A stretch of DNA of 59,500 bases from assembly GCA_044342075.1 (NCBI GenBank), contig JBIIQM010000005.1, positions 1 through 59,500 of the forward strand, in the 5' to 3' direction. The translations under genes and the position numbers were made by a program. This document shows positions 5,147 through 59,500 of the stretch, in pieces. The stretch comes from Pirellulales bacterium (lineage in GTDB: Bacteria; Planctomycetota; Planctomycetia; Pirellulales; UBA1268). The notes below the pieces were generated by a model. It searched no databases. It saw only the letters and a program-made list of their open reading frames with translations, and was not told the DNA's origin. The first letter of the stretch is position 1. Each line of letters begins with the position of its first letter.

Positions 5147-5604
5147 TCTTCGGTGGTCTCGTGGAGCAGATGCAGGTAGCGCTGTCGCATCTGGGCCAGC
5201 AGCATGCCCAGGTAGGCGTTGAGGCCGAGCGAGAGGAAGAGCGCCACGAGGCTGCCGATCAGCCAACCCCAGGGCTTGTCGTGGGTGGCCTTCGAATCGA
5301 CGCCGACGAGCAGCGACTGCGAAGGCGCCAGGGCCACCGGTGCGGCCCGCGGCCGGCGGGCTGCTTCGATCACCGAGCGTTCCACGGCCGGCGGCCATGA
5401 ATCGGCGACGTAGATCTTCACGCGGCGGACATCGCGGGAGTCGGCGGGCACGTCGCTGGTGAACGTGTATGGAGAGGCGTTCTTCACGAGATCGGGCTCG
5501 ACGCGAACGAGGTATTCGCCGCCGCCCCCCTCCGTCGGCACGTAGGCCGCCTCGATGCCCGTTGCGAGCAGGGCGGCCAGCATGAATACCATCTCCAACA
5601 CCAT
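5143..5604 (-). CDS. Hypothetical membrane-anchored protein
   Basis: 153-aa ORF with hydrophobic N-terminus and C-terminal TM helix (WGWLIGSLVALFLSLGLNAYLG) followed by basic residues. Confidence 0.7.
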   Translation of the reverse strand: MVLEMVFMLAALLATGIEAAYVPTEGGGGEYLVRVEPDLVKNASPYTFTSDVPADSRDVRRVKIYVADSWPPAVERSVIEAARRPRAAPVALAPSQSLLVGVDSKATHDKPWGWLIGSLVALFLSLGLNAYLGMLLAQMRQRYLHLLHETTEE

Positions 5605-6750: not shown

Positions 6751-7053
6751 GCGCGATATTTCCCGGAAATCGTGGCGAGTGATGTTGCCTGTCGGCAGTG
6801 TAACCAGCGGCCAGCGTGGCGCCACCTCGGCGGCTTCTTAAAGTAGACTGCTCCCTTCCGCAAACGGCGAGGCGAGCGGGTCGGCGTAAGCTCGCCGAGC
6901 ATTTGGACCGAGTCCGCGAGGGACACCGCGAGGCGCCATTCCGCCGTTGGAGCGGCGGACGAAGAACTTCTGCCGCCCGCGAGCCGGCAGCGGAACCGCT
7001 TCGGGACGGCCGCCATGACGCCCCGGCAGCGTTGCGGGTATTCTTGGCTCCGC

Positions 7054-9285: not shown

Positions 9286-9289
9286 TCAC

Positions 9290-10075
9290 TCAAGCCCTGG
9301 CTTCGGCCGGCCAGAATGCCGGCGGCGTCGCTTCGATCGCGACCGGCGCGAGCGTGTCGGGATCGGTGTAGCGAATCCGCCAGGCATGCAGCGCGATCGG
9401 CCGCGCCCGCGGATCGTTTGGCGGCGGAGCGGCCCAGCCGGCCGCATCCCCTTCCGGCCCGCCGTAGAGCGGATCGCCCACCACCGGCAGCCCGCGGGCC
9501 GACGCTTGCAGCCGCAGCTGGTGCATGCGGCCGGTGAGCGGCGCAAGTTCCACAAGCAGCCGGCCGTCGGCGAGCCGCCTGATCAGCCGCGCCCGCGTGA
9601 CCGCCTCGCGGGCCGTGGCGGTCTCCGCGACCGACACCCTGGCCCGCGGCTCGTCCGGAATCTTCTCGATGAAGTCGCGCCACTCGAGGCCCGAAGTTCC
9701 CGCTTGCTCGAGCCGCAGCCCTTCGTGGCTGCGCTCCGGCGCGGCCAGGATGGCAAGATAAGTCTTCTCGATCTGCCGCCGTTCGAACTGCCGGGAGAGT
9801 TTTCTGGCCGCCCGCGGTGTCGCTGCTAAAAGCAATACGCCCGAGACCGGCCGATCGAGCCGATGGGGCACGCCGACGTAGCCTTCATAGCCGATGGCTG
9901 CGGAGAGATTCCCGGCGGCGAGCCAGCGGCGCAGCCAGGTCTCGGCGGAGTCGATGCCCGGAGGAGCCTGGGTCGGCAGTCCTGCCGGCTTGTCGATCGC
10001 CACCACGCCGGACGCCGTCGCCAGAACGGCCGGTTCGAGCCCGAAGACAAACAACCGGGAATCCCCCTCTTTCAT
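9290..10075 (-). CDS. RluA-family pseudouridine synthase
   Basis: DKPAGL, HRLDRPVSG (catalytic Asp), TGRMHQLR, GDPLYG, ALHA motifs. Confidence 0.93.
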   Translation of the reverse strand: MKEGDSRLFVFGLEPAVLATASGVVAIDKPAGLPTQAPPGIDSAETWLRRWLAAGNLSAAIGYEGYVGVPHRLDRPVSGVLLLAATPRAARKLSRQFERRQIEKTYLAILAAPERSHEGLRLEQAGTSGLEWRDFIEKIPDEPRARVSVAETATAREAVTRARLIRRLADGRLLVELAPLTGRMHQLRLQASARGLPVVGDPLYGGPEGDAAGWAAPPPNDPRARPIALHAWRIRYTDPDTLAPVAIEATPPAFWPAEARA

Positions 10076-10159
10076 ATGGTCGGCCCCTTCCGCTATGGTG
10101 GGTTCTTCGGATCAAGTCTTTTGAACATCGATGCCTTTGGGCACCTGCGGGATTCCATC

Positions 10160-10792
10160 ATGGCCGTTACCGTCCTCGTCGTCGATGACCACGAAGTCAT
10201 CCGCCGCGGCATCGCCAGCATGGTGGAGGGCTCCGACATCCGGCTCGTGGCAGAGGCCGCCGACGGGGAAGAAGCGACGAAGCTGGCCCGCAAGCATAAG
10301 CCCGACGTCGTGCTGCTCGACGTGCGGATGGGCGGCAAGGACGGCCTCGACTCGATTAAGCGGATTCGTTCCGCCGCCCCGAACACCCGCGTGGTGATGC
10401 TGTCCGCATTCGACAACACGACCTACGTCGCCCGGGCCGTGTCGGCCGGCGCCCACGACTACCTGCTCAAGTCGGCCACCCGCAAGGAATTGCTGGAAGC
10501 CCTCTCGGGCGCCGCCAGCGGGGCATCTCCCACGCGGGCCGGCGAGTTCAAGCGCATCGCCGGCGCGATGTCGCAGCGGGAGCCGCCCGCCAACAGCGAC
10601 GTTCCCCTGACCCCGCGGGAGACGCAGGTGCTGCGGCAGATCGCGTTGGGCCTCTCCAACAAGGAAATTGGCGAATCGCTCGAGATCAGCGTCGAGACGG
10701 TGAAGGAGCACGTGCAAAATCTGCTGCGGAAGATCGCCCTCGAGGATCGCACGCAGGCTGCCGTCTGGGCGATCCGACACGGCCTCGCCTGA
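10160..10792 (+). CDS. NarL/LuxR-family response regulator
   Basis: VVDDHEVIR, VLLDVRM receiver; LTPRETQVL...SNKEIG...VETVKEHV LuxR HTH. Confidence 0.95.
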   Translation: MAVTVLVVDDHEVIRRGIASMVEGSDIRLVAEAADGEEATKLARKHKPDVVLLDVRMGGKDGLDSIKRIRSAAPNTRVVMLSAFDNTTYVARAVSAGAHDYLLKSATRKELLEALSGAASGASPTRAGEFKRIAGAMSQREPPANSDVPLTPRETQVLRQIALGLSNKEIGESLEISVETVKEHVQNLLRKIALEDRTQAAVWAIRHGLA

Positions 10793-10828
10793 TCGCCCCA
10801 CCGAAGCCCACGAACCGAACCCCCTTCG

Positions 10829-11284
10829 ATGCCCATCTTTGACTACTCGTTCACCGTCCCTGCCCCGCTGCAGGCCGTCCGCGATTTTCATCACGACACC
10901 AGCGCCCTGAAGCGGCTCACACCCCCGCCGACAATCGTGCAGCTGCATTCGATCGAGCCGCTCGGCGAGGGCTCCGTCTCCCAGTTCACGCTCTGGGTGG
11001 GCCCGTTGCCGCTGCGCTGGACCGCGGTGCACCGCAATGTTTCCCCTTCCGGCTTCACCGACATCCAGGCGGAGGGACCGGCCGCCAAGTGGGAGCACAC
11101 CCACACGTTCACCGCCGTCTCGCCGACGGTCACGCGCATCGACGAGCACATCGAATACGAGCACAAGCGCGGGCTCTGGGGGCTCGTGACACGGCTCCTC
11201 TTCTCGAAGCCGAACCTCTATTTCATGTTCACGTTTCGCAAACTCGCCACCCGCTGGCACCTGCGAAACGCTCGTGCCGCCTAA
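10829..11284 (+). CDS. SRPBCC-family protein
   Basis: FTDIQAEGPAAKWEHTHTF and RIDEHIEYE patterns typical of this SRPBCC subgroup. Confidence 0.8.
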   Translation: MPIFDYSFTVPAPLQAVRDFHHDTSALKRLTPPPTIVQLHSIEPLGEGSVSQFTLWVGPLPLRWTAVHRNVSPSGFTDIQAEGPAAKWEHTHTFTAVSPTVTRIDEHIEYEHKRGLWGLVTRLLFSKPNLYFMFTFRKLATRWHLRNARAA

Positions 11285-12078
11285 TAGCGGATGCCGGCGC
11301 CGACGTTCGAGAAGAAATTCGCCGATGTGTCGTTCAGCCCCCAGCCGAACCGCACGCCCACCTCGACGTCGCGCGTGAGCAAGACGTGGCCGCCGAAACT
11401 CGCGAATTGCGAGTCGATCGGCTTCTCTTTGCCCGAAGAGAGAATCCCAAAGTACTCGGCATGCACGTTCCACCGTTCGCCGACCGGAATCTTCAGCACG
11501 GTCGAGGGCGCCCACTGGTTGAAGGCGTCGCCCTCGTCATACCCGGTGCCGTAGCGCATGGCCGTGTCCCAGACCCAGCCGTTGGGCAGCGTCCAACCGA
11601 AGGCCTCGCCGACCACCATCGTCGAAGCGGTCGAGGGACCGTAGGTCGGCGTGTAGCCTTGGAGGATCGCCGCCGACGATGGAATCCAGCCGTCCTGTTC
11701 CGATGATTTCACCTTCATGCCGTAAAGCACCCGGCTCTCGGTCTCGGCCACGATATCCTCGCCGCCGACTTCACTGCCCGACACAGTGCCTGGCCCCCCC
11801 GCCTCGTAGTTGTAGCCGAACCGCAACTCGAAACGGTCGCCGATGCCGCGTCGCACGAGCAGCTCCGGCAGGCTGTGCGCCTCCGGTCCGAGCCGGTTGT
11901 CGATGAACGAATACGAGGCCTCGAGGATCGAGCGCCCCGCGCCGGCGGTGGTCGTCGCAAACGTGAACGAATCCCGATCGGTCTCGATTTCGTCAGGCTC
12001 GTCCACGGACTGCCCACGGGCCGGCATCGGGCCGAAACCGGCCAACACGAGCGCAAAGACGGGAAGCCACGGCCGCAT
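11281..12078 (-). CDS. Outer-membrane beta-barrel (Phenol_MetA_deg / transporter-like)
   Basis: Signal peptide, IETDRDSFT motif, alternating beta-strands, C-terminal GAGIRY. Confidence 0.75.
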   Translation of the reverse strand: MRPWLPVFALVLAGFGPMPARGQSVDEPDEIETDRDSFTFATTTAGAGRSILEASYSFIDNRLGPEAHSLPELLVRRGIGDRFELRFGYNYEAGGPGTVSGSEVGGEDIVAETESRVLYGMKVKSSEQDGWIPSSAAILQGYTPTYGPSTASTMVVGEAFGWTLPNGWVWDTAMRYGTGYDEGDAFNQWAPSTVLKIPVGERWNVHAEYFGILSSGKEKPIDSQFASFGGHVLLTRDVEVGVRFGWGLNDTSANFFSNVGAGIRY

Positions 12079-12388
12079 GCGGCCGTGGATCGACCCGCGG
12101 CGCAAACCTGCTTGAGGATTTGCGGGCTTGCTGGGGACACAAAAACACCCGCGCCCCCCCAGTGTCCGGCAGCGCCTTGGCAAGGCGGGGGGCTCGGGCG
12201 CAGTGGATCGCCTGAGTGATTTGCCGGTGATGCATCCGTAGCCGCTCGCCGACAGTGAGCCGGCCGGCCCGTTCCGCCGATGCTACCTGCCAACCAGGGG
12301 CTGAATGTGCCCCTCGACCAGGACGGGGGATTGGAACCGGGGGGCAGCGATGCAAGGCGGCAGGCGGTCACGGGGCGCGGTTGGTCAC

Positions 12389-13696
12389 ATGTCTGGGAAT
12401 CTGCTCGTGCTTGCGGGGCTCGCGTTCGCGGCGCCGGCGGCCGCGCAGGAAGAGCCTTTCGTCGGCCAGCCCAGCAGCGTCGGCTCGTTCGAGGCTCGCG
12501 ATCCGGTCCTCGCCGACGAGGTGATGACCGGCGTGATCCCGTCGGGGCAGGATTGGTATCTGTTTGGCGAGCCGACGCGCGGCGGCGTCTACGGCTGGCT
12601 CGAAGGCGGCTTCATCGGCAACTTCGCCAACCCCGGCAGCAAGTTCAACGGCCCCTACAACGCCGTCGACCGTGCCAACGAGCCGATGATGAACCAGGTC
12701 TACTTCATCGGCGAGCGTCTGCTCCCCACCGACGGCTCGGTGGGCGTGGGCGGCCGGGCCGACCTGCTCTACGGCGAGGATTTCCCGCTCGCCACGTCGC
12801 TCGGCTGGGAAGACACGCTCAGCGGCCAAAACCAGTGGAACAGCGGTGAATACTACGGCCTCGCGATGCCGCAGCTCTACGGCGAGGTGGGCAACCAGGA
12901 TCTCTCGGTGAAGCTCGGCCACTTCTACACGATCGTGGGCTACGAGGGCGTGCCGGCCGTCGGCAACTTCTTCTACACGAAGTCCTACAGCTACATGTTC
13001 GCCGGTCCGTTCACCCACTGGGGCGGCCTCGCCACCTGGCGGGCCACCGACAACCTGGAACTCAACGGCGGACTCGTGAACGGCTGGAACGGTCTCGCCT
13101 CACCCTACAGCAAGGCAAACTTCCTCGGCCGCGCCCGCGTGAAGAACGACGACAACTCGCTCGCCAGCACGTTTGCGATCGTCACGGGCGACGAGGGCAA
13201 CGACTTCTCGCCGCTCTACCAGCCGGCGCCGGTGCTCGAGTCGGCCAACCGCACCCGCTACAGCCTGCTCTTCGAGGTGCGGCCGAACGACCGCTGGGAA
13301 TACGTCTTCCACCAGTGGCTCGGCACGCAGGCGCAGGGGCTCGCCAACGGCGGCACGGCGCTTTGGACCGGCATCGACCAGTATCTCTACTGGGCCGCCA
13401 GCGACACCTGGAAGTGGGGCGCCCGCTTCGAGTGGTTCCAAGACACCGACGGCACCCGCGTGGGGCTCAACCGTCCGAGCAACCCCAACCATGTGCCGCT
13501 GCCGGGCAACTATTATTCGCTCACGCTCGGCGCGAACTGGGTGCCGACCGGCAACTTCCTGATGCGGCCCGCCTTTCGCTGGGACTTCTACGGCGGCCCG
13601 CAGGGTGGCCCGCCCTCCGGCCCGCGGCTGCCTTACAACGACGGCGCGAGCTGGAATCAGACCATGCTCGGCTTCGACGCGATCCAGAAGTTTTAG
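12389..13696 (+). CDS. Outer-membrane beta-barrel porin, BBP2 family
   Basis: Signal peptide; NQVY, DLLYGED, PQLYGE, KLGHFYTIVGYE, PFTHWG, RFEWFQD motifs; C-terminal aromatic residue. Confidence 0.85.
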   Translation: MSGNLLVLAGLAFAAPAAAQEEPFVGQPSSVGSFEARDPVLADEVMTGVIPSGQDWYLFGEPTRGGVYGWLEGGFIGNFANPGSKFNGPYNAVDRANEPMMNQVYFIGERLLPTDGSVGVGGRADLLYGEDFPLATSLGWEDTLSGQNQWNSGEYYGLAMPQLYGEVGNQDLSVKLGHFYTIVGYEGVPAVGNFFYTKSYSYMFAGPFTHWGGLATWRATDNLELNGGLVNGWNGLASPYSKANFLGRARVKNDDNSLASTFAIVTGDEGNDFSPLYQPAPVLESANRTRYSLLFEVRPNDRWEYVFHQWLGTQAQGLANGGTALWTGIDQYLYWAASDTWKWGARFEWFQDTDGTRVGLNRPSNPNHVPLPGNYYSLTLGANWVPTGNFLMRPAFRWDFYGGPQGGPPSGPRLPYNDGASWNQTMLGFDAIQKF

Positions 13697-13713
13697 CGTC
13701 GCGCCGGACTAAC

Positions 13714-13787
13714 TGCCTCGTCTTGGACTCGAACCAAGAACCCTCTGATTAAGAGTCAGATGCTCTGACCAATTGAGCTAACGAGGC
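13714..13787 (-). tRNA. tRNA-Lys (CTT), CCA not encoded
   Basis: Reverse complement folds as a cloverleaf: acceptor GCCTCGT/ACGAGGC, anticodon loop CTCTTAA, T-loop GGTTCGAGTCC. Confidence 0.97.
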
Positions 13788-13950
13788 GACGCACGTTTTG
13801 TAACCCGCGGCGGGCCGCTCGGCAAGGGCCGCGGCCGGCGCCGAGCGGCCGCGTTGAGGGTTTTCGTCCGGGCCGGTACATTTCCGCGTTCCCGGACAAG
13901 GGCAGGCTCGCAAGGCCTCCGCCCACTCACCAGACAACGGAGGTTTCAAG

Positions 13951-14775
13951 ATGGGCAGGTTTGACGGAATGAAGGGTCTCGTGCTCGGCGTGGCGAACGA
14001 CCACTCGATCGCCTGGTACATCGCCAAGGAGATGCTCTCCGAGGGTGCGCAGATCGGCTTCTCCCACCTGCCCGACAAGCCCGATGACGAGCGGCAGCGC
14101 AACCGCCGCCGCGTCGCCTTGCTCACCGACTCGGAGCCAAACGCCAAGTTCCTGGTACCGATGGACGTTTCGAGCGACGACCAGATCGCGGCGGTGATGG
14201 ATCGCGCAAAGCAGGAGTTCGGCACGATCGACTTCCTCGTCCACTCGATCGCCTATGCCCCGATGGAAGACCTCAAGGGGGAGACGACCGACTGCAGCCG
14301 CGAGGGCTTCCGGATCGCGATGGAGACGAGCGCCTACAGCCTGCTGGCCGTCGGCCGGCTCGCCCGCAAGATCCTCGCCAAGGATGCCTCGATCCTCACG
14401 CTGACCTATTTCGGCGGTGAAAAGGTCGTGCCCGGCTACAACATCATGGGCGTCTGCAAGGCCACCCTCGATGCCTGCGTGAAATACATGGCCTACGACC
14501 TCGGCCCGGCCGGCGTGCGGGTCAACGCCATCAGCGCCGGTCCGCTGCGGACGCTCGCCGGCCGCGGTGCAGGCGTGGAAGAGATGCTCGATCTCTACCA
14601 GCACATGTCGCCCATGGGCCGCAACATCACCCACGAAGAGGTCGGCAAGACCGGCGCCTTCCTGCTCTCCAAAGACTCGGGCGGCATCACCGGCGAGATC
14701 CTCCACGTCGATGCCGGCTACAACGTGATGGGCTCGCCCGGACGCCTCCTCGACCTCGTGCAGAAGCCGCAGTAG
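13951..14775 (+). CDS. fabI: Enoyl-ACP reductase FabI
   Basis: GVANDHSIAW, DFLVHSIAYA, YNIMGVCKATL, VRVNAISAGP, HVDAGY. Confidence 0.95.
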   Translation: MGRFDGMKGLVLGVANDHSIAWYIAKEMLSEGAQIGFSHLPDKPDDERQRNRRRVALLTDSEPNAKFLVPMDVSSDDQIAAVMDRAKQEFGTIDFLVHSIAYAPMEDLKGETTDCSREGFRIAMETSAYSLLAVGRLARKILAKDASILTLTYFGGEKVVPGYNIMGVCKATLDACVKYMAYDLGPAGVRVNAISAGPLRTLAGRGAGVEEMLDLYQHMSPMGRNITHEEVGKTGAFLLSKDSGGITGEILHVDAGYNVMGSPGRLLDLVQKPQ

Positions 14776-14794
14776 GCACGCGCTGCCCGAGCCG

Positions 14795-15193
14795 ATGACC
14801 AAAGCGATCCGCACGATCGCCGTCGCCGTGGTGGTGCACGATGGCCGTGTGCTCGTGGGCAGACGGCCGCCCGATGCCGCCGAGGCGCCGGGGCTCGACG
14901 AGTTTCCCGGCGGCAAGGTGGAGGCGCACGAGACCTCGGCGGAGGCCGCGGCCCGCGAGTGCCTCGAGGAGGCGGGCATCGCGATCGACGTCGGCAGCCG
15001 CTCGTTCAGTGCCGTCTCGACGCAGACGCACCCACACCTGCTCGTGATCTTCCATTGGGCGACGCCCGTCGACCCGGCGGCGGCGCCCAGGCCACCATTC
15101 GAGTGGATCCCGCTCGCGCAGCTGCCGAAGCTCGAGTTTCCGGCGGCGAATGCGGCGGTCGTCGCGATGCTCCTCGAGGGTCAGGGTGGATAG
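14795..15193 (+). CDS. NUDIX hydrolase (MutT-like)
   Basis: Nudix box FPGGKVEAHETSAEAAARECLEEAG; FPAAN tail. Confidence 0.9.
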   Translation: MTKAIRTIAVAVVVHDGRVLVGRRPPDAAEAPGLDEFPGGKVEAHETSAEAAARECLEEAGIAIDVGSRSFSAVSTQTHPHLLVIFHWATPVDPAAAPRPPFEWIPLAQLPKLEFPAANAAVVAMLLEGQGG

Positions 15194-15196
15194 TCA

Positions 15197-15445
15197 TCAG
15201 GGCGGATCGTAGCCGCCCGGGTGCCAGGGATGGCAGCGGCAGATCCGGGCGATGCCCTTGATCGCGCCGCGCAGGGCGCCATGTTTCTCGACGGCCTGCC
15301 GGAAGTAAGCGCTGCAGGTCGGCTGAAAGCGACAGTGGCGGCCGAGCAGCGGGCTGAGCGTCGCCTTGTAGATGATGACGAGGCCGACGAGCACCGCGGA
15401 GGCGGCGCGGTCGCACGCCCGAGCGCAGCGTCCGAAGAGCGTCAT
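15197..15445 (-). CDS. yidD: Membrane protein insertion efficiency factor YidD
   Basis: CRFQPTCSAY...ARICRCHPWHPGGYDP. Confidence 0.95.
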   Translation of the reverse strand: MTLFGRCARACDRAASAVLVGLVIIYKATLSPLLGRHCRFQPTCSAYFRQAVEKHGALRGAIKGIARICRCHPWHPGGYDPP

Positions 15446-15825
15446 TTTCTTTCACCGCCGTAGCCGGGCCGGCCCACCACCCGCTTCGCCAGCGCCACGA
15501 GATTCTCCTCGACCGCCCGGGCGCCCGCCGCGCCGACGGGCACCGTGGACGACCGCACGACGACCACGAAATCATTGCCCGGGGGCAGCCGATCGCGTAT
15601 CTCGCGAAACGCCTCGCGCAGCCGGCGCTTCCAGCGATTGCGCACGACGGCCGAACCGATCCGCCTCGAGACCGAAGTCCCGAGCCGCACGGCATCGCCT
15701 GCGCCGGGCCGCGCGTAGAGGACGAGGCCTGCCGCCGCGGCGCTGCGGCGATGCTCGTAGACCCGCGCAAACTCCGCCGGCGAGTGGAGCCGCGCCGACC
15801 CGGGAAACTTTTGGTTGGACGCCAT
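15442..15825 (-). CDS. rnpA: Ribonuclease P protein component
   Basis: RLHSPAEF, RLGTSVSRRIGSAVVRNRWKRRLRE (RNR motif); ATG at 15825 overlaps the upstream TGA. Confidence 0.93.
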   Translation of the reverse strand: MASNQKFPGSARLHSPAEFARVYEHRRSAAAAGLVLYARPGAGDAVRLGTSVSRRIGSAVVRNRWKRRLREAFREIRDRLPPGNDFVVVVRSSTVPVGAAGARAVEENLVALAKRVVGRPGYGGERK

Positions 15826-16781
15826 CACCATCGCAACTGGCCGCGCGGGCCGGGCCCACCCGCGGCCTCGGCGGCCTTCGCGGCCTCGAGCAGCCTGTCG
15901 AGCGCCGCGGCGTCGGCCTGATCGGGGAGCACGATCTGCACTTCGGCGATGAGATCGCCCTTCGCGCCATTCGCGTGCCGCACGCCCATGCCCGCAGCCC
16001 GCAGCTTCCGGCCGCCCGATGTCTTCGGCGGCACCTTGAGCGCGATCGTGCCCCATGGCGTGGGGACGTCGACCTTCGCCCCGAGGATCGCCTCCGCCAC
16101 GCTCACCGGCAGCGTGAGCTCCAGCGTGTCGCCATCGCGGCGGAAGACGGGATGCGGCTCGACCTTCACCTCCAGGAGCAGGTCGCCCGCCGGTCCGCCG
16201 CCCGTGCCTGGCAGCCCCTGGCCGCGCAGCCGCATCCGGGCACCGTCGGGCAGCCCCTGCGGAATCGTCACGCTGATCGTCTCGGTCTTGCCGTCGCGGT
16301 CGACCCGCACGTCGGTCTTGCCGCCATCGATCGCGAGCTTGAAGGGAATGTCGATCCGCGCGGTGACGTCCTCCCCCGGCGCCTGCGCCGGTCGGCGCCG
16401 GCCACGGGCCTTGGTGCCGCCGCGGCCGAAGATGTCGCCGAAGCCACCGCCGCCGCCGAAGAGGCTTTCGAGATCGATCTCGCCCCCCCCCGGAAAGCCG
16501 CCGCCGGGGAACGGGCCGCGGCCTCCGCCCCAGCCGCCACCGGGGCCGCCAGCGCCCACGCCCTCGAACGAGCTGCCGTAGCGGTCATACATCTCCCGCT
16601 TGCTCTGGTCGTTGAGCACGTCGAAGGCGGTCTGCACCTTCTTGAACTTCTCCTTCGCGGACTCGTCGTCCGGATGAAGATCGGGGTGATACTTGCGGGC
16701 GAGCTCGCGATAGGCCTTGCGGATATCTTCGGCGGAAGCCGTGCGCGGCACGCCGAGCGTCTGGTAATAGTCCTCCGCCAT
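15825..16781 (-). CDS. cbpA: DnaJ-class chaperone without Zn finger (CbpA-like)
   Basis: J domain with HPD, G/F-rich linker, DnaJ C-terminal domain (GDLLLEV, GDLIAEV), no CxxCxGxG repeats. Confidence 0.88.
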
Positions 16782-20690: not shown

Positions 20691-21362
20691 TCAGGCCTCG
20701 GCGACGACGAGCTTCCCGGCCGCTTCGATCGCCAGCGACAAGACGCGCTTGCTCACGCGCACCCGCATCAGCCCCGCGCCGTCGGGATTCCGCTCCACCT
20801 CGCCGACGGCGCCGAGCACGAGGCCGGAGTCGGTGAGGTAGCGCAGAAAACCGGCCGACTGGTCGAGCACGCGGGTGAGCCGGAATGCCGTTCCGGCTTC
20901 GCATTCGGCGAGCGAACGGGCGGGCTCCTCCTTGGGCGGCTGGAGCGATTCGCCCTCGCCGCGCGGGATCGGATCGCCGTGGGGATCGACGTCGGGATGA
21001 CCGAGGAAGGCGTCGATCCGGTCCACGAGCAGGTCGCTCACGGCATGCTCCATGTGCTCCGCCTCGTCGTGCACCTCATCCCAGCTCATGTCGAGCGTGC
21101 GCAGGAGAAAGAGCTCGATGAGACGGTGGCGGCGGATCATGCGCAGTGCCAAAACGCGGCCGGCCCGCGTGAGCGCCACGCCCTCGTAGGGGCGGTGGGT
21201 CGCGAGCCGGGCGGCATCGAGCGTCTTGAGCATGCTCGTGACGGTGCCGGGAGAGACGTCGAGCGCCGCCGCCAATTGCCCGGTGGTGGCGGCGCGGCCT
21301 TCTTGCGACGACACGATCTGGTAGATCGTCTTCACATAATTTTCGACGGTCAGGCTGGGCAC
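20691..21362 (-). CDS. mntR: DtxR/MntR metal-dependent repressor with FeoA-like C-terminal domain
   Basis: TVENYVKTIY, RRHRLIELFL, EVHDEAEHMEH, DPHGDPIP. Confidence 0.93.
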   Translation of the reverse strand: MPSLTVENYVKTIYQIVSSQEGRAATTGQLAAALDVSPGTVTSMLKTLDAARLATHRPYEGVALTRAGRVLALRMIRRHRLIELFLLRTLDMSWDEVHDEAEHMEHAVSDLLVDRIDAFLGHPDVDPHGDPIPRGEGESLQPPKEEPARSLAECEAGTAFRLTRVLDQSAGFLRYLTDSGLVLGAVGEVERNPDGAGLMRVRVSKRVLSLAIEAAGKLVVAEA

Positions 21363-52719: not shown

Positions 52720-52793
52720 GGCAGCGTAGCTCAGTTGGTTAGAGCACCGGCTTCATAAGCCGGGTGTCGCCGGTTCAAGTCCGGCCGCTGCTA
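52720..52793 (+). tRNA. tRNA with CAT anticodon (elongator Met or Ile2), CCA not encoded
   Basis: Acceptor GGCAGCG/CGCTGCT, anticodon loop TTCATAA, T-loop GGTTCAAGTCC; lacks initiator GGG/CCC stem. Confidence 0.95.
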
Positions 52794-54916
52794 TTGGCGC
52801 GACCGAACGACTTCTCCTTGGTCAGGCCCCCGGTCTGAATACGACCGGGTTTGCCGCTTGAGGCCATGCTCGTGGTGTCCACGGCCTGGCGGCGATCGAG
52901 GCTCTTGCGAGCCTCCTTACGGGCATTGGGATCCACGGCCGCCAGCAACGCTCTGGCGAACGGGTTGGTGGCCGGAGACCCCGTGAGTGTGTTCTCGGCG
53001 GTGTCGGGTGTGGAGCGGGCGGCGGCAGGGAAATCCGCGTCGCCGTAGACGACCACACCTCCCTTGAGCCGCCGCACCATCCGCTTCGGCCCAAACTTCT
53101 GTTCGCCGAATGTCAGGCCGATCTTGATCCCGAGCCGGCGAAAGATATCACAGGCCTCCTCTCGATTGGCTGGATCCGCAAGCGCAGCGGCGAGGTGCCG
53201 GGCGATCCGGACGGCGGCCTCGACTTCCTCGTCGGCAGGCAACTCATCGCCGCCGGATAGGGCAGTTGTCGCCTTGGCGAGTTCGGCCTTCGCCTTCAGC
53301 GCCTCGGCCGTCAGCCGTGAGTTTTCCCGTTTGAGAATCTCGTAGGCCGCGTCGTCCCGCTCCACCGCCATACGTCTGCCGGTGGTCTCTGCGTCGGCCG
53401 TCAGGGCTGCCACCTTGGCCTCCCAGTAATCGGCCTGCTCCTTCCGCAGCGAGTCCGGCGTCGCCGATCGCAGCCGCAGGGCGTGCTCCCGGAGTTTCTC
53501 GCGGAGGGCGGCCTCTCCGGCGTGAAAAGCGAGACCGTGCGTCACCATCCGGCACGCGAACTCAAACAGTCGCTCCGACGAGACGGTATTGTGCTCACAC
53601 TCCCTGCCGTCGGAATCCTCATAACGGCTGCAGACAAACTTGAATTCACCGTGCTGCTTGTGGCCGTGCATCAATTCACCGCATCCCTCGCCGAGGCAGT
53701 GGACGCGGGTACCGAGCGGATACGTGTCGAGTGACCGCGAGCGCGGCCTCCGCTTTTGGGGGTTGGCACGGTTCGCCAGCGTTTCCTGAAGCCGGTGCCA
53801 ACGCTCCGGATCCACCAGCGGCTCGAAGCCTGCCGGGGCCGTCACGAATTCCCCAGGCTCGTTGTAGATGAGCCGCAACTGCTCGTCTCCATTGGTATCG
53901 ACCGTCAAGTCGCGATCATCGATGTCCCGCGGGCCATCAAGTGACCAGCGCTTGTGCGTGCCGCCGGACTGCCGGCCGTATGCCTGCAAGCCAATGATCA
54001 ACGGGTTTTGCAGCAGTTGCTTCACCGTCTCCGAGTGCCAAGCGGTGCTCACCGGCACATCGACACCCTTGCGCTTTCGCTTCGTGCCCGCGGCAGGAGT
54101 CGGGATACCCTTCTCCGTCAGCCGATTGGCAATCGCACGCACCCCGAGCCCCTTCTCGGCCAGCTCGATCATCCAGAGCCACACTCTGATCTTGGCCCAG
54201 TCCTTGGGCTTGATCTTCACATGACAGCCCTGCTGATCCACCTTCTTTCCCTGCGGCAGTTCCTCGATCTCCTTGCCGTTGGCGTCAACGAGAATCCGGA
54301 CAAATCCATACGGGGCCGGGCCGCCGAGGCGGTGCCCCTGCTCGGCGATGACCCTGGCCGTCTTCAGGACGCGGTCGCTGAGCTCATAGCTGTAGCGACC
54401 GCTCCGCGAATACTCGATGTTACGGGTGACAACCTCCACCGTGTCGTCTTCCCCGGGCCGCCTGGGCTCCACGATCTCGCTCTCGAAGACGATCGTCACG
54501 CCCAGTTCGAGAATCTCCTCTTCGAGCCTTGACCCATCAGACGTCCGGTGCGGCCGCGCGAGCCGATCCCGCTTATGAACGAACAAGTGGGATATTGATC
54601 GGTCAGCCTTGAGGTCGGCAATCAGCTTGTCGAGGCCCGGCCGGCTGAGTTCGGAGCCCGAGATCCCGTCGTCGACATAGAGATCGCCGATGTTGCAGGC
54701 CCCGGTTCGCTCTGCCTCGGCCACGAGCGCCGCGTCCACAGCCAGCGGGACGTTCACGTCCCGGGCCCGCTTCATGGCGACCTCGACCTGATACGCGAAT
54801 GAGTTTTCTTGCTTGTTCTTGGTCTGGCTACGGCGGCCGTACATCGCCCCGCGGCCTGGTGGTCGCTTTCGAATCACACGGCCCCGCCGGCGACCATTCC
54901 GGTTGCTACGCGTCAT
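52775..54916 (-). CDS. Large serine recombinase (resolvase + recombinase + Zn-ribbon + coiled coil)
   Basis: YGRRS (catalytic Ser), YVDDGISG...RPGL, DRLAR, GPAPYGF, NPLIIG, CLGEGC...FVC...EC, coiled-coil stretch. Confidence 0.92.
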   Translation of the reverse strand: MTRSNRNGRRRGRVIRKRPPGRGAMYGRRSQTKNKQENSFAYQVEVAMKRARDVNVPLAVDAALVAEAERTGACNIGDLYVDDGISGSELSRPGLDKLIADLKADRSISHLFVHKRDRLARPHRTSDGSRLEEEILELGVTIVFESEIVEPRRPGEDDTVEVVTRNIEYSRSGRYSYELSDRVLKTARVIAEQGHRLGGPAPYGFVRILVDANGKEIEELPQGKKVDQQGCHVKIKPKDWAKIRVWLWMIELAEKGLGVRAIANRLTEKGIPTPAAGTKRKRKGVDVPVSTAWHSETVKQLLQNPLIIGLQAYGRQSGGTHKRWSLDGPRDIDDRDLTVDTNGDEQLRLIYNEPGEFVTAPAGFEPLVDPERWHRLQETLANRANPQKRRPRSRSLDTYPLGTRVHCLGEGCGELMHGHKQHGEFKFVCSRYEDSDGRECEHNTVSSERLFEFACRMVTHGLAFHAGEAALREKLREHALRLRSATPDSLRKEQADYWEAKVAALTADAETTGRRMAVERDDAAYEILKRENSRLTAEALKAKAELAKATTALSGGDELPADEEVEAAVRIARHLAAALADPANREEACDIFRRLGIKIGLTFGEQKFGPKRMVRRLKGGVVVYGDADFPAAARSTPDTAENTLTGSPATNPFARALLAAVDPNARKEARKSLDRRQAVDTTSMASSGKPGRIQTGGLTKEKSFGRANSSGRT

Positions 54917-55439
54917 TGCTTTGCTCCTTGGTATTGCTTCGCTCGGCGATGGACATGATCACGGGCGCGAATGCCGCCGCCTGATCTACTGGGCTCGGTG
55001 GCCGAGCCATCACGATGTCGCACCCCAGCATCTCCCGAGCGTCGGGATGGCAGTGGGTCGCCCACGCCTCGACGACGCGATTAAAAATTACCGTGCCGGC
55101 AGTTGGGTCCATAAACGACATCGGGTCGACGTGGTACCGCCAGACGAGATCGGACATAGCCTTCGCAGCCGGAGGGAAGTCGAGCGGAATCAGGTGACGC
55201 AGCCCGGCGTCCTCCCAAGCGGCAACCTGCACGACCGCCGCCAACTCCGCCATGAAGCCCGGTGCGAACTTCGCCTTGGCGACATCGATGCCGATTGGCT
55301 CAAGCAGCGCATGCAGGGCAACGATCGTGCGATCGAAGACCTCGTCGACGTAGAGCTTCACCCCTGCAGCCAGGCGATCCTCGACCGGCGCCGTTGTGGT
55401 CTTTGCCGCGAAATGGCAGGCCGGTTGCGAGTATCGCAT
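54906..55439 (-). CDS. Hypothetical protein (177 aa)
   Basis: Open frame with ordinary protein-like composition; its stop overlaps the recombinase start by 11 nt. Confidence 0.65.
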   Translation of the reverse strand: MRYSQPACHFAAKTTTAPVEDRLAAGVKLYVDEVFDRTIVALHALLEPIGIDVAKAKFAPGFMAELAAVVQVAAWEDAGLRHLIPLDFPPAAKAMSDLVWRYHVDPMSFMDPTAGTVIFNRVVEAWATHCHPDAREMLGCDIVMARPPSPVDQAAAFAPVIMSIAERSNTKEQSNDA

Positions 55440-55643
55440 GGCACCCTTCCATGAGTGTGACTATCGATGCCCGCGCCACCACACCGGCCGCGAACGGGCT
55501 CTACGGAATCCATCCCGAAACACCATTGTAAAGTTCCATCGCCACGACACAAAACATTTTTCCGAGGTGTTACCTCCGCCTTCCGCTCGCGTGGCTCCCG
55601 GAGCCAGCGCTAAGTCGCCGGCCCCGGGAGCTTCACGCTGCGA

Positions 55644-55847
55644 TCAGGCTTTTTCCGCTTCACATGCGTTTGGCGGGCGACGCTGTTCCGCCCGTATTCG
55701 CCGAGCAATCAACTCGGCGAGTAACTGCCGAAACCGATGGACGCTCACAGGAAAGTGATGTGCATAGGGCGGATTCACGTCGCGTCGCTCTGCCCCGCGG
55801 TCATCGTCGGGGCCCTGATCGGGCTCCTCTCGTCTGGATCTGTTCAT
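55644..55847 (-). CDS. Small hypothetical protein (about 67 aa)
   Basis: ATG at 55847 within ORF 55644..55913; amphipathic basic helix FRQLLAELIARRIRAEQRR. Confidence 0.45.
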   Translation of the reverse strand: MNRSRREEPDQGPDDDRGAERRDVNPPYAHHFPVSVHRFRQLLAELIARRIRAEQRRPPNACEAEKA

Positions 55848-55938
55848 TGTTGGTGTATCTGTAATAAGAGAACCGGCGGCGTGCCCGGGAGCCACGTCAG
55901 CCCCAGTCGGCACGCCACCGGTCGGTCTTCATCACGAA

Positions 55939-56322
55939 TCAGGCGGCTCGCCGCATGCGTCGGCCGCAACGGATATAGACCCGCGGCTCGAGGTGGCGGT
56001 CCCAATCGAGGCCACCGGTCAACTCGGCCATGTCGACGACGTCGGGCTCGTCGTCCCGGCGTGCCGTGTCGACGACGTGGAAGCCACGGTGCCGCACCAG
56101 CTCCACCGACTCGCCGAGCAGCCTTGCCACCGACGCATTCAACTCACGGTCATTCTCAGGCTCGTCAAACACCATCTGCGCACTCTCCCCCGGGGAAATC
56201 CGGGAACAAGGGACACGTCGCCGGCGAGCGTCGCCGGCGTCGAGAGAACTGAGGCTCGCAATGGCGGTAGCCACCGCGGCCAAGGCTAGCTGATCAACGC
56301 TGACCAGCCGCCGGGAAAACAA
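55939..56322 (-). CDS. Hypothetical protein (127 aa)
   Basis: Co-oriented ORF in the island; no recognised motif. Confidence 0.45.
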   Translation of the reverse strand: MFSRRLVSVDQLALAAVATAIASLSSLDAGDARRRRVPCSRISPGESAQMVFDEPENDRELNASVARLLGESVELVRHRGFHVVDTARRDDEPDVVDMAELTGGLDWDRHLEPRVYIRCGRRMRRAA

Positions 56323-56353
56323 TTACAGCGCCCGCGAAGGCGACCATCAGCAT

Positions 56354-56797
56354 TCAGGAATTAATCAGTCGCACGTCACGAAGCAAACTGCCAACCATGT
56401 GGTCCACATGCTTGACGAGCATCGCCCGCACCACCGGTAGCAGCTTCCCGTACGGCAGGAATCGACCGCGGAGATCAGTCTGCTCGCCGAAGGAGCAGAG
56501 CAGGTGCTCGCTGTATTCGTCGGCGTTCCACACCGCTGCCCCGATTCCGCCGGGCATCAGCAGCACCGCCTGAAAGACACAAACGTCGTCGCTGTTGTCG
56601 TTCGTCAGGCCGGCGGGACGAGCGTAGATGCTTGGCCCTTCGACCTGATGACTGATGATCCCGAGCATGGCCAAATGGGACAGCTGGTCATTGACCGCCG
56701 GGATCGTGGCCTCGGCCTCTTCGAGGCCGGACCGAATCGTCGCTGCGAGCCTGGCCAGTTCGGCGGCTCGCTCGGAAAGAATCTCATGCATTGGCAT
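56354..56797 (-). CDS. Hypothetical protein (147 aa)
   Basis: AAGGA SD next to ATG; N-terminal coiled-coil-like helix, globular C-terminus. Confidence 0.65.
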   Translation of the reverse strand: MPMHEILSERAAELARLAATIRSGLEEAEATIPAVNDQLSHLAMLGIISHQVEGPSIYARPAGLTNDNSDDVCVFQAVLLMPGGIGAAVWNADEYSEHLLCSFGEQTDLRGRFLPYGKLLPVVRAMLVKHVDHMVGSLLRDVRLINS

Positions 56798-56851
56798 ATT
56801 CCTTGAAGAAAGATCGCGGCCAATACCAAAGGGCCGCTCAAGGAATATGCC
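56793..56851. promoter_or_regulatory. Perfect 14-bp inverted repeat covering the RBS and ATG of the 147-aa ORF
   Basis: GGCATATTCCTTGA (56793-56806) / TCAAGGAATATGCC (56838-56851), nested GCGGCC/GGCCGC. Confidence 0.6.
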
Positions 56852-56868
56852 GCGTTTTCGTGCGTTAT

Positions 56869-57650
56869 TTAGCGGCCGTCCTGGAGGACAGGACGGTCAA
56901 TGGCACTTCCTCCACCGTTGTCCGGACGGTGAGTTGCGTGTGAGTTCCGGTTGGTGTCTAGCTGGTGCCTGCCGGGCCGGTCGTCGTGGACCTGCACGAG
57001 CTCGGCCCAGTCGGTGGGCGGTCCACGGGCCGGTGAGACTCGCGGAGGCTCGAGCGGTTCGCCGAGGTGCGTGAGGATCTTCCGGAACGGGCCCGGATCG
57101 GTGATGAATGAGATGAGCCGGATGTCGCCACCACACCTCGGGCACTCGACTGGAAACTCCTCGCCCACCCGGGCTATGAGTTTGGCCCAGGCGATCCGCA
57201 AAGTGTCGCGTAAGCGCAGTTTGTCGCGTGAGTCGCAGCAGTCGCCGGTGGCATCTTCGCCCGCCGCATGTCCGCCGACCGCATACCCGCCGGTCGCGGC
57301 ATCGCGCCGCTTGCCGACATTCCCTTTTGTCGAGTGCCGTGACGGCGGGCCTGAGCTTGTGATTCGGGGCGAAAACCCCGTGATACCGGTGGCGGTGCTT
57401 CCGCGGTGGCGGCACGAGGGCCGAGAGCCTATCCAGAAAATCGAATGGCGAGAGTTCGACGACGCAATTTACCCCCGGCCGGGTCGATTTTCGCGAGCGG
57501 CCCGGGCCAACCCAGTTGGCCGCCTTGTGTCGGGGAGCACGTGGCGGACGCGGGCGATGCGGCCGTCTTCACCACGCCGGACGGAAAGCCGCTCCAGCGC
57601 AAAGGGCGGACGGGCACAGTATCGCAGCAGGTGCTCGAGGCCTTGGAAAT
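56869..57650 (-). pseudogene. IS91/ISCR-like (Y2) transposase C-terminal remnant, frameshifted
   Basis: LEHLLRYCARPPFALERL, PPPRKHRHRYHGVFAPN and WAKLIARV..FPVECPRCGG..RKILTHLG..ARGPP found in three different frames. Confidence 0.85.
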
Positions 57651-57654
57651 AGCT

Positions 57655-58578
57655 CGGCACGTCACGGTCGATGAGTGCGATCCGAACACTCGCATCGATC
57701 GAGAAGGTTGCAACGTACTTTGACGTGAGCGAGTCCTAGGTTCGGCGTATCAAGCAAGAGCGTCGAGAACTCAACAAGACTGCACCGTTTCTGAAGCGGC
57801 GGCGTGTGCCGCTTTGGTCTGCATTCGCGGATCAGGTCAAAGACATCATCAATCGCAAGCCGAATCTGACCCCCGAGGAACTGAAGAGGGAACTCGGGAC
57901 GGATATGTCGGTTCCGACGTTGTGCACCGCGTTGCAGCGGCTTCGCCTTACCATCAAAAAAATTACTTAACGCCTCCGAGAGGGAACGTCCGGACGTCGC
58001 GGAGAGACGGGAAGAGCTTCGTCGGGAGCAGCCGCATCTGAATCCGGAGCGTCTCGTTGTTATTGATAAAACGTGGGCCACGATGAACATGACTCGCCCA
58101 CGAGGGCGAGCATTGAGAGGGGAGCGTCTTCTGGTCAGCGTGCCTCATGGCCACTGGAAAACCACGACGTTCCTGGCGGCCCTTCGCACCACGGGTCTGA
58201 CGGCGCCTCTGGTCGTGGATGGGGCGATCAACGGCGAGATCTTCCTTGGCTGGGTAATCCACCACTTGTTGCCGACGCTAAAGCCAGGGGACAATTCTGG
58301 TGATGGCCAACCTCAGCGCTCACAAGGTGGCAGGTGCTCGAGAGGCGATCACAGCCGCTGGAGCACGGCTCGTCTATCTACCGCCGTACAGTCCAGACCT
58401 GAACCCGATTGAACTCGTCTTCTCGAAGTTCAAGTGGCTCTTGAAGAGTGCGTCGGCCAGGACTGTCGAGACCCTCTGGTCGGTGAGCAGCGACGTGCTC
58501 GATCGCTTCACGGAGGAGGAGTGCCGAAACTGCTTCAGGCACTGCGGCTACCGCTACACGTAAACCATGAGCGATTTA
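57655..58578 (+). pseudogene. IS630-family transposase, decayed
   Basis: orfA with ES(TAG)VRRIKQERR and PNLTPEELK..SVPTLCTAL, A7 at 57956-57962, orfB VIDKTW, HGHWKTTT, then a frameshift, MANL (D lost), [18 protein letters not shown]. Confidence 0.88.
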
Positions 58579-58762
58579 GGAACGGCCTGTCTGCTCGTAG
58601 AGCCTCCCACGCGAGCCCATCAGCGCTCCACACGAGGTGCAGCCCGTCCTGCCCGTTGTCCTTGAAGTAGCTGAGGATGAACGGCCCGTCGGCCCCAGCC
58701 GCATGACCGCCACCGACGGCACTCCATGACATGACGGCCATCACCAGCGCCGCCATCAGCAC
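58579..58762 (-). pseudogene. Truncated N-terminus of a GH43-like secreted glycoside hydrolase
   Basis: Signal peptide then FILSYFKDNGQDGLHLVWSADGLAWEAL..RPFL, cut at TA 58577-58578 where the IS630 end begins. Confidence 0.6.
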
Positions 58763-58862
58763 AGGGGGCCGCCAGGGAGGCGTATCGCCATTCGGGTTCG
58801 GGGGCCGCGCTCAATTCACGATGTTCCTGAGAGGCCTAGCCAAGAGGGCCCGGCGATCGACC

Positions 58863-59500
58863 TCATTTCACCTCGAGCGTGAGGTCGGGACGGTTTTTTC
58901 TTACCTGCTCGATCGCAGTGTTGGTGATCGCCGGATTGCGGGTGATCCCCAGCCGCCGCAGCGTGGGGATCGCGGCCGCGAAGGCGACGGCCTCGTCGGT
59001 CGCCTGCCTGTCGAGCAGATCCAGTTCGACGAGCGGCACGCCGGCGATGCCCGCCAGCGCTTTGCCCGAACTCTCCTTGTTGAAACTGCCGAGGCCGAGT
59101 CGCTCGAGGCGACCGAATGCCGCAAGCGCCGGAGCCGCAGCGTCGGTGAACGCGGCGTGCGCGACCCAGAGCCGTTTCAGATTCGGCATCCGGGAGATGG
59201 CCGCCAGCCCGGTGTCGCTGACCGGCGCATGGTGCAAGTTGACGTTCGTCAGCTTCGTCAGTTTGCCGAGGTGCGTGAAGCCGCTGCCCGTGCAGGGTGT
59301 GGATGCGAGGCCGAGCGACTGGAGTTCCGAGAGCCCGGCGAGGTGCACGAAATGCTCGTCGGTGACGGGCGTCAGGGTGAGATTGAGATTCTCGAGCTTC
59401 GTGAGGCCGGCGATGTGCTCGAGGCCCGGCCCGTGGACGTCGCAGTTGGTCAGCCGCAGCTCCGTGAGCGACGTCGCCCCGGCCAGGTGTTCGAGCCAGG
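58863..59500 (-). CDS. Leucine-rich-repeat protein (5-prime part outside the window)
   Basis: Repeated LxxLxLxxxxVTDxGL-type units: LSELQSLGLASTPCTGSG, LTKLTNVNLHHAPVSDTG, LVELDLLDRQATDEA. Confidence 0.88.
   Translation of the reverse strand, partial: WLEHLAGATSLTELRLTNCDVHGPGLEHIAGLTKLENLNLTLTPVTDEHFVHLAGLSELQSLGLASTPCTGSGFTHLGKLTKLTNVNLHHAPVSDTGLAAISRMPNLKRLWVAHAAFTDAAAPALAAFGRLERLGLGSFNKESSGKALAGIAGVPLVELDLLDRQATDEAVAFAAAIPTLRRLGITRNPAITNTAIEQVRKNRPDLTLEVK

Follow-up and report, generated by a model that had tools for sequence, protein, structure and literature searches.

We propose that a large serine recombinase gene, which runs antisense into a tRNA-Met gene, carries inside its own 3' end the attachment site of the element that it serves. 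The window, that is, the whole stretch of DNA analysed, is the entire 59.5-kb contig (C162) of a 172-contig, 3.28-Mb metagenome-assembled genome (MAG; genome G000) of an uncultured freshwater Pirellulales bacterium. The recombinase, LSR1 (large serine recombinase 1), is probably the integrase of a composite, partly decayed integrative element residing in tRNA-Met(CAU), with attP inside the integrase gene, and we hold this reading with good confidence. A further step is that the gene is truly split by the att site: a C-terminal module of about 40 residues would be kept at the opposite end of the element and joined in frame only in the circle, and the integrated copy would end in tRNA-encoded filler. 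This further step is a tentative proposal, whose chances we rate as clearly below even. The features on which the argument rests are the following.

52720-52793, plus strand: intact tRNA-Met gene (anticodon CAU; ARAGORN), at the attL junction.
52775-54916, minus strand: LSR1, 713 residues in the integrated form (open reading frame (ORF) list, Pfam, PHROG and PDB matches).
52775-52780, minus strand: last sense codon ACT (Thr713, 52778-52780) and stop codon TGA of LSR1, host T-loop DNA outside the core (from the sequence, and from the P arms of attR and attP-like sites, which have no T loop).
52781-52793: common core O, CCGGCCGCTGCTA, made of the T-stem 3' strand, the acceptor 3' strand and the discriminator (junction table, alignment of attB and attR).
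52794-52826: P' arm of the attachment site, within the tail codons of the integrase (orthologue comparison).
52827-52831: C5/G5 homopolymer in the integrase tail (sequence, database variant).
54906-55439, minus strand: ORF of 177 codons, overlapping the integrase start by 11 nt (ORF list).
52794-59500: island portion nearest to the integrase, cut off by the end of the contig (G+C about 0.63; remainder 0.69).

An earlier note on this DNA, made from the letters alone, had described the recombinase ORF as running into the tRNA gene with a 19-nt overlap, its TGA being the complement of TCA at 52775-52777, and ARAGORN, the ORF list and direct reading of the sequence (overlap 52775-52793) all agree with this description. 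The T arm of the tRNA reads GCCGG-TTCAAGT-CCGGC. The stop codon (52777-52775) is complementary to the TCA of the T loop TTCAAGT, and the codons before it, S-S-G-R-T (52792-52778), are antisense to the 3' strands of the acceptor and the T stem and to AGT, the last three bases of the T loop. LSR1 is the sole long ORF to the right of tRNA-Met in the window, and a scan for a terminator-like site between the integrase and the tRNA found none. Transcription of the integrase may thus run antisense into the tRNA gene, as the earlier note supposed. The G+C content drops from about 0.69 to about 0.63 precisely where the tRNA gene ends and remains low up to the contig end. In six relatives of the genus that do not have this recombinase, the tRNA-Met is 100% identical, and the flanks diverge directly past the discriminator A52793. 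The 5' part of the tRNA gene is host DNA (the B arm), and at most its last 13 nt come from the element. The anticodon CAT by itself does not separate elongator Met from lysidine-modified Ile. A G1-U72 wobble pair sits on top of the acceptor stem (52720, 52792) and is kept in all relatives.

About 20 orthologous loci were gathered from metagenomes and MAGs. Fifteen of them (74-92% nucleotide identity) adjoin a complete tRNA-Met at the identical base and end at the same TGA, so the overlap of LSR1 with the tRNA is not a matter of chance. Close homologues in a collection of 5.8 billion proteins (77-100% amino acid identity) nearly all end in ...S(S/G)GRT. Moreover, a distant clade, about 35% identical and present in 45 out of 176 genomes from this bacterial family, adjoins tRNA-Pro (GGG or CGG), and its ORFs likewise end within the antisense of the tRNA, with overlaps of 20, 36 or 56 nt. 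The tRNA linkage that the earlier note had asked for among homologues is therefore found at both levels, at tRNA-Met for the close orthologues and at tRNA-Pro for the distant clade. Forty more metagenomic homologues mostly carry antisense-tRNA peptide ends as well (..RGDRI, ..RGERI, ..WIRTSDL..). A search of IMG/VR returned no relatives, and a search of a genome collection returned two already known MAGs only.

The extent of the common core was defined by comparing junctions. The 13-bp core is the only tRNA sequence common to attL, attR, attB and attP-like junctions. The tRNA-Met and flank of G002 were set against G111:C87, which has an LSR2-side arm (LSR2, a second serine recombinase, is introduced below), the core and, at about 90% identity, that same flank; the two become homologous exactly from CCGGCCGCTGCTA onwards. 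On the other side, attL and attB diverge immediately past the discriminator. These two boundaries define the core as 52781-52793 and place the crossover within it, and the homology of a further junction (L046, in G071:C3) breaks at 52780|52781. The core is 13 bp long at tRNA-Met and 11 bp at tRNA-Pro. A narrower interval comes from G120:C101 (L045), where both element ends lie on one contig, 9.4 kb apart: a compensatory T-stem variant of the host is present in its attL and absent from its attR, which puts the crossover at or to the right of 52785, that is, within 52785-52793. From these comparisons, the recombinase would probably cut at a 2-bp centre within the core, likely in 52785-52793. The attR of G120:C101 also holds an inverted copy of the P' 13-mer GCGACCGAACGAC (52799-52811 in the window), giving imperfect inverted arms in one element, as would be expected for the two arms of a serine-integrase attP.

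The core falls within LSR1 codons 708-712, and the attachment site of the element is thereby placed, by sequence comparison, inside the 3' end of the integrase gene. This agrees with the suggestion of the earlier note that the crossover lies in the 3' end of the recombinase gene: every far-end or junction site of the Met type holds only the 13-nt tRNA end beside an unrelated P arm. The core being identical to the T-stem and acceptor 3' end, integration rebuilds an intact tRNA from element DNA. The codon ACT and the TGA are host T-loop DNA and are missing from every P arm, so the C-termini of the integrated and excised forms must differ, as the note had also supposed. The P' arm itself lies in coding sequence. 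Its 13-mer has at most two variable positions across all orthologues, and GTCGTTCGGTC, the reverse complement of 52801-52811, is unchanged in every orthologue copy (74-100% identical), which suggests a constraint at the DNA level from the attachment site beyond coding.

The lead to the far end of the element was L046 (G071:C3), an orthologue 94% identical in DNA to another one and without a tRNA behind it. Its integrase ORF reads 45 codons past the core break and is then followed by the gene of LSR2. Homologues of LSR2 occur in 66 of the 176 family genomes, including G000 (contig C164). They are about 830-860 residues long and have the same orientation as the integrase, and their genes always adjoin the far arm on its inner side, no more than about 250 nt from the core. 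Far ends could be located via 10-13-nt motifs upstream of LSR2 genes, and 16 such far-end or junction loci were surveyed. Fifteen of the 16 show the same order of a variable left context, an antisense tRNA 3' end, a conserved P arm and LSR2. The left context is either host flank, as at attR, or an LSR1 3' end, as at an attP-like or tandem junction. The tRNA piece at these LSR2-side junctions is the 13-nt TAGCAGCGGCCGG for the Met type, decayed in G013:C8 (L092), and the 11-nt GTCGGGGCGAC for the Pro type. The sixteenth locus, G120:C101, matches the tRNA 3' end over just 11 nt and has another type of arm.

In G000, the attR of the island lies on C164 at about 15852-15864, beside LSR2 and host flank. 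Read in the tRNA orientation, the junction is ...CACAATACTGAGCAG, CCGGCCGCAGCTA, GTGTCATCC..., situated between LSR2 and a desaturase-like host gene, and its comparison with the other junctions identifies it as a putative attR made of the P arm, CCGGCCGCAGCTA and the original downstream host flank. The relative G009 has tRNA-Met and the orthologous flank together on one contig, with the flank 7.3 kb downstream of the tRNA; here too, 15 nt left over from the tRNA 3' end stand before the flank. Taken together, the attR on C164 and the linkage of the flank in G009 indicate that the island consists of C162 from 52794 to 59500, an assembly gap, and C164 up to about 15851.

Joining the arms in silico gives attP as P arm-CCGGCCGCTGCTA-TTGGCGCG and attB as tRNA-...CTA-GTGTCATCC. 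In the integrated state, the LSR1 frame passes from the core into host DNA and ends two codons on, at the TGA antisense to the T loop. Upon excision, the P arm would replace the tRNA, and the circle would encode an integrase with a different, longer tail. For the joined arms of G000 (C162 and C164), the predicted product has 760 residues and reads ..SSGR|LLSIVHEAVPFVENRSDSW...PIGL*, as compared with 713 residues ending in ..SSGRT*. With an arm of the G071:C3 type, a conserved peptide of 42 residues would instead be appended to the integrase.

That peptide belongs to a family of small conserved peptides, about 40 residues long, which the far arm of related elements encodes directly past the core. 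Class A arms comprise the Met-type junction L046 and five Pro-type loci, and their peptide follows the pattern ..(Y/D)NRGPFDIATLAIFPEY(L/V)EF(E/D)GQ(E/D)VL.LVV.GAAGRT..*. Variable sites number 10, 9 and 25 at the first, second and third codon positions, so the class A peptide is coding. No ATG, GTG or TTG stands between the core and the peptide in four of the six class A loci, where the frame is open through the core, nor in L099; the homologues P0068-P0070 lack a conserved start, two of them having an internal ATG. Peptide and integrase share a frame in four real contigs (L046, L099/P0021, P0048 and P0069), L099/P0021 representing a lineage of lower G+C in which LSR2 is again next. They do so as well in two integrated elements that have both their ends on a single contig: G111:C33, where the integrase would grow from 717 to 759 residues, and G147:C126.

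A general in-frame rule is contradicted by other arms. The homologous peptide of class C is in another frame, and the adjacent integrases are out of frame in four contigs, one of these four integrases having a 1-nt deletion; in addition, one class A arm adjoins an out-of-frame integrase remnant. The out-of-frame junctions could be hybrid junctions of tandem arrays. Class B, to which the arm of G000 belongs, encodes a homologous peptide (..ILGPYVHFTAADLGRFAIK..) outside the integrase frame and behind conserved TTG codons. The class A peptide was not found in G000 by a search whose sensitivity is low for 43 residues, and Pfam searches with the far-arm peptides gave no match. The in-frame junction of L091 was dropped as evidence, its integrase having a 1-nt deletion relative to seven relatives. 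From this distribution, a functional split gene would be a serious possibility for part of the family and a hypothesis for the G000 copy.

The closest competitor keeps the same architecture and denies the C-terminal swap a function: the last 75 or so residues would be a tolerant linker that doubles as the P' arm, and the two isoforms would behave alike. We give this explanation a little less than an even chance. It accommodates the tail frames that differ between subfamilies at one and the same tRNA-Pro (..SRGDRI*, ..VGATGLEPATS* and ..SRGDWIRTSDL..*), the frameshifted tails found in databases (P0001, P0014, L091), the class B arm of G000, where the integrase frame runs into an extension other than the conserved peptide, and the five adjacent junctions whose conserved peptide does not share the integrase frame. 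At 69% G+C, an open frame across a short core also costs little, and a similar 'trivial' explanation was preferred for the dsiB gene of Dehalococcoides (McMurdie et al., 2011). What it does not accommodate is the 10/9/25 pattern of a protein-coding peptide in one arm class, the missing start codons in four of six class A loci and in L099, and the integrase frame of the peptide in L046, L099/P0021, P0048, P0069, G111:C33 and G147:C126.

The remaining alternatives question the architecture itself. If the att identity were a long block from the anticodon loop to the 3' end, in the style of tyrosine integrases, it would include the stop codon and both forms would encode the same protein. Relatives indeed hold partial copies of the tRNA 3' half of 36-59 nt, from the anticodon loop to the 3' end, and in three metagenome contigs the integrase is followed by a partial tRNA of 37-46 nt. 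However, either these copies have another conserved end, CCGCAACCGnGGAGATGCTCAT, before them or other mobile genes come after them, and they were dropped as attR; behind the partial tRNAs that adjoin the recombinase, these genes are a tyrosine integrase or terS and DnaB. The long copies thus belong to other elements, and tRNA-Met is a hotspot with tandem arrays. Every site beside a P arm of the LSR family has only 11-13 nt of tRNA, and G000 itself has no second copy of the tRNA 3' part of at least 17 nt by BLASTN-short and pattern searches, hence no classical long direct repeat. We consider the long block scarcely credible, the least probable of all the alternatives. An annotation artefact, in which the real gene would be shorter and its apparent continuation into the tRNA fortuitous and untranslated, is only marginally less improbable. 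High G+C favours long spurious frames and the variant P0001 ends differently, but there is not one in-frame stop from the recombinase domains to the tRNA in the roughly 20 orthologues or in the tRNA-Pro clade, and the tail holds a block of 33 residues conserved family-wide.

It is also improbable, if less so, that LSR2, or LSR1 and LSR2 jointly in the manner of CcrA/CcrB or DsiA/DsiB, is the true integrase for the tRNA site. The constant position of LSR2 next to the core within the far arm would fit, all the more as the attachment site of phage serine integrases usually lies directly upstream of the integrase gene, and two-recombinase systems exist. Against this, LSR2 proteins 89-94% identical to each other lie beside Met cores (C164, G111:C87, G013:C8, G069:C10) or a Pro core (G134:C320), so LSR2 would have no role in the choice of tRNA, whereas the Met and Pro clades of LSR1 are 35% identical and each always matches its tRNA. 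From this pairing we infer that LSR1, not LSR2, is the specificity determinant for the tRNA. In addition, the LSR1 elements L049 and L024 have no LSR2 in the 6 kb between the tRNA and host genes, and several LSR2 copies are damaged, among them those of G120:C101 (frameshifted) and G071:C3 (truncated). LSR2 may act as a helper.

Several points weigh against our preferred reading of LSR1 as an integrase with attP inside its gene. The attP and attB of G000 are in-silico joints of arms, the core copy on C164 has one mismatch, and the island is broken over at least two contigs with insertion sequence (IS) fragments, so that the C164 arm may be that of another member of a tandem array. The crossover is resolved to an interval inside the core, above the level of the dinucleotide. 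A truly empty tRNA-Met site was not found in the genus, where the locus is always occupied. Finally, the integrase tree is star-like and undecided, and the SSGRT and SGGRT tails, which reflect an acceptor-stem variant, are interspersed in it and form no clades; this would need repeated adaptation of the P' arm or exchange of arms.

Transfer RNA genes are the classic landing sites of tyrosine integrases, and serine integrases at such sites are rare in the literature. LSR1 resembles the integrases of phiC31, Bxb1, TP901-1 and Listeria A118/LI in its domain order, its catalytic motifs and, it seems, its short att sites, which have imperfect inverted arms in one element. Phage-type serine integrases mostly target protein-coding or intergenic sites, with attP outside and usually upstream of the gene and with a separate factor setting directionality. 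A gene switched at its C-terminus by integration is reportedly also known from the integration-dependent immunity of mycobacteriophages, where attP is said to lie inside the gene; there, the split gene is reportedly a repressor, the integrase a tyrosine recombinase, and the mechanism the removal of a degradation tag.

The arrangement has more precedent than the earlier note suggested, given Dehalococcoides dsiB and Mx8 int. In Dehalococcoides, the dsiB gene reads across attL into a tRNA-like gene, the only published case of this kind for a serine recombinase, and the authors speculated that it may be fully functional only on the circle, leaving the layout unexplained (McMurdie et al., 2011, BMC Genomics 12:287). 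As with DsiB, the serine recombinase described here lies on the reverse strand directly beside the attL of a tRNA-like gene with insertion in the T arm, and both systems share tandem stacking downstream of the target gene and a second serine recombinase in the element. However, in Dehalococcoides the islands enter the tmRNA gene ssrA and the direct repeat has 20 bp, as opposed to tRNA-Met and tRNA-Pro with repeats of 13 and 11 bp. DsiB, compared by layout and description, is a CcrB-like protein of about 540 residues with an adjacent small DsiA in a six-gene module, whereas LSR1 has 713 residues, its upstream gene encodes a 177-residue protein that is not a Resolvase, and the second recombinase is large and located at the opposite end. 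Furthermore, the Dehalococcoides tails were reported to be divergent, while one arm class here encodes a conserved in-frame peptide.

For phage Mx8, attP in the int gene and an alteration of the enzyme by integration have been established experimentally (Tojo et al., 1996; Magrini et al., 1999; both by way of PMC6070905). As in Mx8 int (IntP/IntX), the crossover in LSR1 maps inside the integrase coding sequence and integration gives a new 3' end; Mx8 Int is a tyrosine recombinase of different chemistry with larger att sites, and no homology is implied. Tycheposons of Prochlorococcus, a minority of which (27 of 937) are described as having a large serine recombinase instead of a tyrosine recombinase (Hackl et al., bioRxiv 10.1101/2020.12.28.424599), likewise integrate in stacks at a small number of tRNA genes, among which are one tRNA-Met(CAT) and tRNA-Pro. 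They belong to another phylum, and, compared by description, an attP within the recombinase gene is not mentioned in the text consulted. Our literature searches turned up neither an account of serine integrases whose core of 11-13 bp lies in the T-stem and acceptor strand of true tRNA genes nor one of a far arm with a conserved in-frame peptide.

What the present analysis adds is a clade in Pirellulales and other metagenomic lineages with an 11-13-bp tRNA-Met or tRNA-Pro core inside the last codons of the integrase, the definition of both ends for the G000 element and several relatives, and sequence pairs from which excision would produce an in-frame fusion to a conserved peptide, by which the old speculation about a circle-only enzyme becomes testable. 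If the gene is indeed split, it would constitute a built-in sensor of the state of the element, for direction, specificity or stability, without or beside a directionality factor. Should direction be controlled by the swap, this would amount to a compact, factor-free switch, interesting for genome engineering with serine integrases. If it has no control role, the locus would still be a well-mapped case of about 20 nt shared by an integrase gene, an attachment site and a host tRNA.

The LSR1 protein has the composition of a large serine recombinase, with a catalytic domain containing the serine nucleophile and a PF07508 domain behind it. Pfam Resolvase (PF00239) matches residues 67-154 (E 9e-12) and Pfam Recombinase (PF07508) matches residues 246-383, after the catalytic domain (E 8e-13), while PHROG 95 'integrase' aligns over residues 75-605 (E 2e-42). 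The only PDB sequence matches are the phiC31 and TP901-1 integrases, in their catalytic domains. In the translation, the catalytic motif YGRRS30Q and, after it, HKRDRLAR can be read. A four-cysteine, zinc-ribbon-like segment (CLGEGCG...FVCSRYEDSDGRECEHN) and a helical stretch rich in Glu, Arg and Ala, a putative coiled coil, were recognized by eye; PF13408 does not match LSR1 at E <= 0.01 and is carried by the relatives P0024-26 and P0065.

The C-terminal tail has about 75 residues. Its block of 33 residues, NPFARALLAAVDPNARKEARKSLDRRQAVDTTS (residues 651-683; 52868-52966), is near-invariant in protein and DNA across orthologues. Both regions neighbouring this block vary freely, and its distance from the core is too great for a usual serine-integrase half-site. 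The database variant P0001 (708 residues, 17 member sequences) is otherwise 100% identical to LSR1 and is frameshifted by one base at 52827-52831; it terminates at a TAG inside the core, which is the antisense of CTA at 52791-52793, the last three tRNA bases. This frameshift could be an assembly error or reflect heterogeneity in the population. In the distant integrase homologues P0045, P0058 and P0057, the extensions past the core end in ..HLVLAA*, ..RLLLAA* and ..IIQLSA*, respectively, and resemble degradation tags of the ssrA type. A decayed orthologous integrase (82% amino acid identity) at L047 (G165:C77), 9195-11407, has three in-frame stops and is cut by an IS91-like element.

Every related element, even the distant L099 (1661-2200), has the 177-codon ORF upstream of its integrase. 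Pfam and PHROG searches with it gave no match, and it has no Resolvase domain; its product is a candidate accessory or directionality factor.

Other candidates for the far end were set aside. A 17/18-nt match at L024, 5842-5858, has its tRNA-like part on the wrong side and is unsupported by any other locus, and the segment 56977-57705 of the window, considered as an element boundary, is an IS91-family Y2 transposase repeated in the genome. In the 10-20 kb upstream of L049, L050, L021-23, G111:C33 and G164:C30, far ends were not found by BLAST. Another island family uses the same tRNA-Met; its far ends carry a tRNA copy of about 42 nt from the anticodon loop after CCGCAACCGnGGAGATGCTCAT, the pattern typical of tyrosine integrases. 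These copies, the other features of the island part in the window and the LSR2 copies are as follows.

L015 (G002:C45), 4770-4811: tRNA copy of about 42 nt.
L018 (G004:C41), 6850-6891 and 8352-8396: tRNA copies of about 42 nt.
L019 (G007:C66), 5473-5512: tRNA copy of about 42 nt.
Window 55939-56322 and 56354-56797, minus strand: small ORFs.
Window 56977-57705: fragment of an IS91-family Y2 transposase.
Window 58300-58563: fragment of a DDE_3 transposase.
G000 C164, about 13302-15614, minus strand: LSR2 copy (homologue search).
L045, 9233-11746; L046, 4482-5561; L099, 4426-5799: LSR2 copies.

Genes or fragments of the IS91 family (Y2_Tnp and Zn_Tnp_IS91) recur elsewhere in the genome, on C164 at 3912-4525 and 11519-13081, on C10 at 1-127 and on C172 at about 20700-21000. 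A repeat of this family probably broke the assembly between C162 and C164. The element of G120:C101 (L045) carries a gene for a MazF-like toxin (PHROG 1936) at 14091-14435, and a partial second copy lies at 8756-9115, just outside attR, hinting at the remnant of a neighbouring related element.

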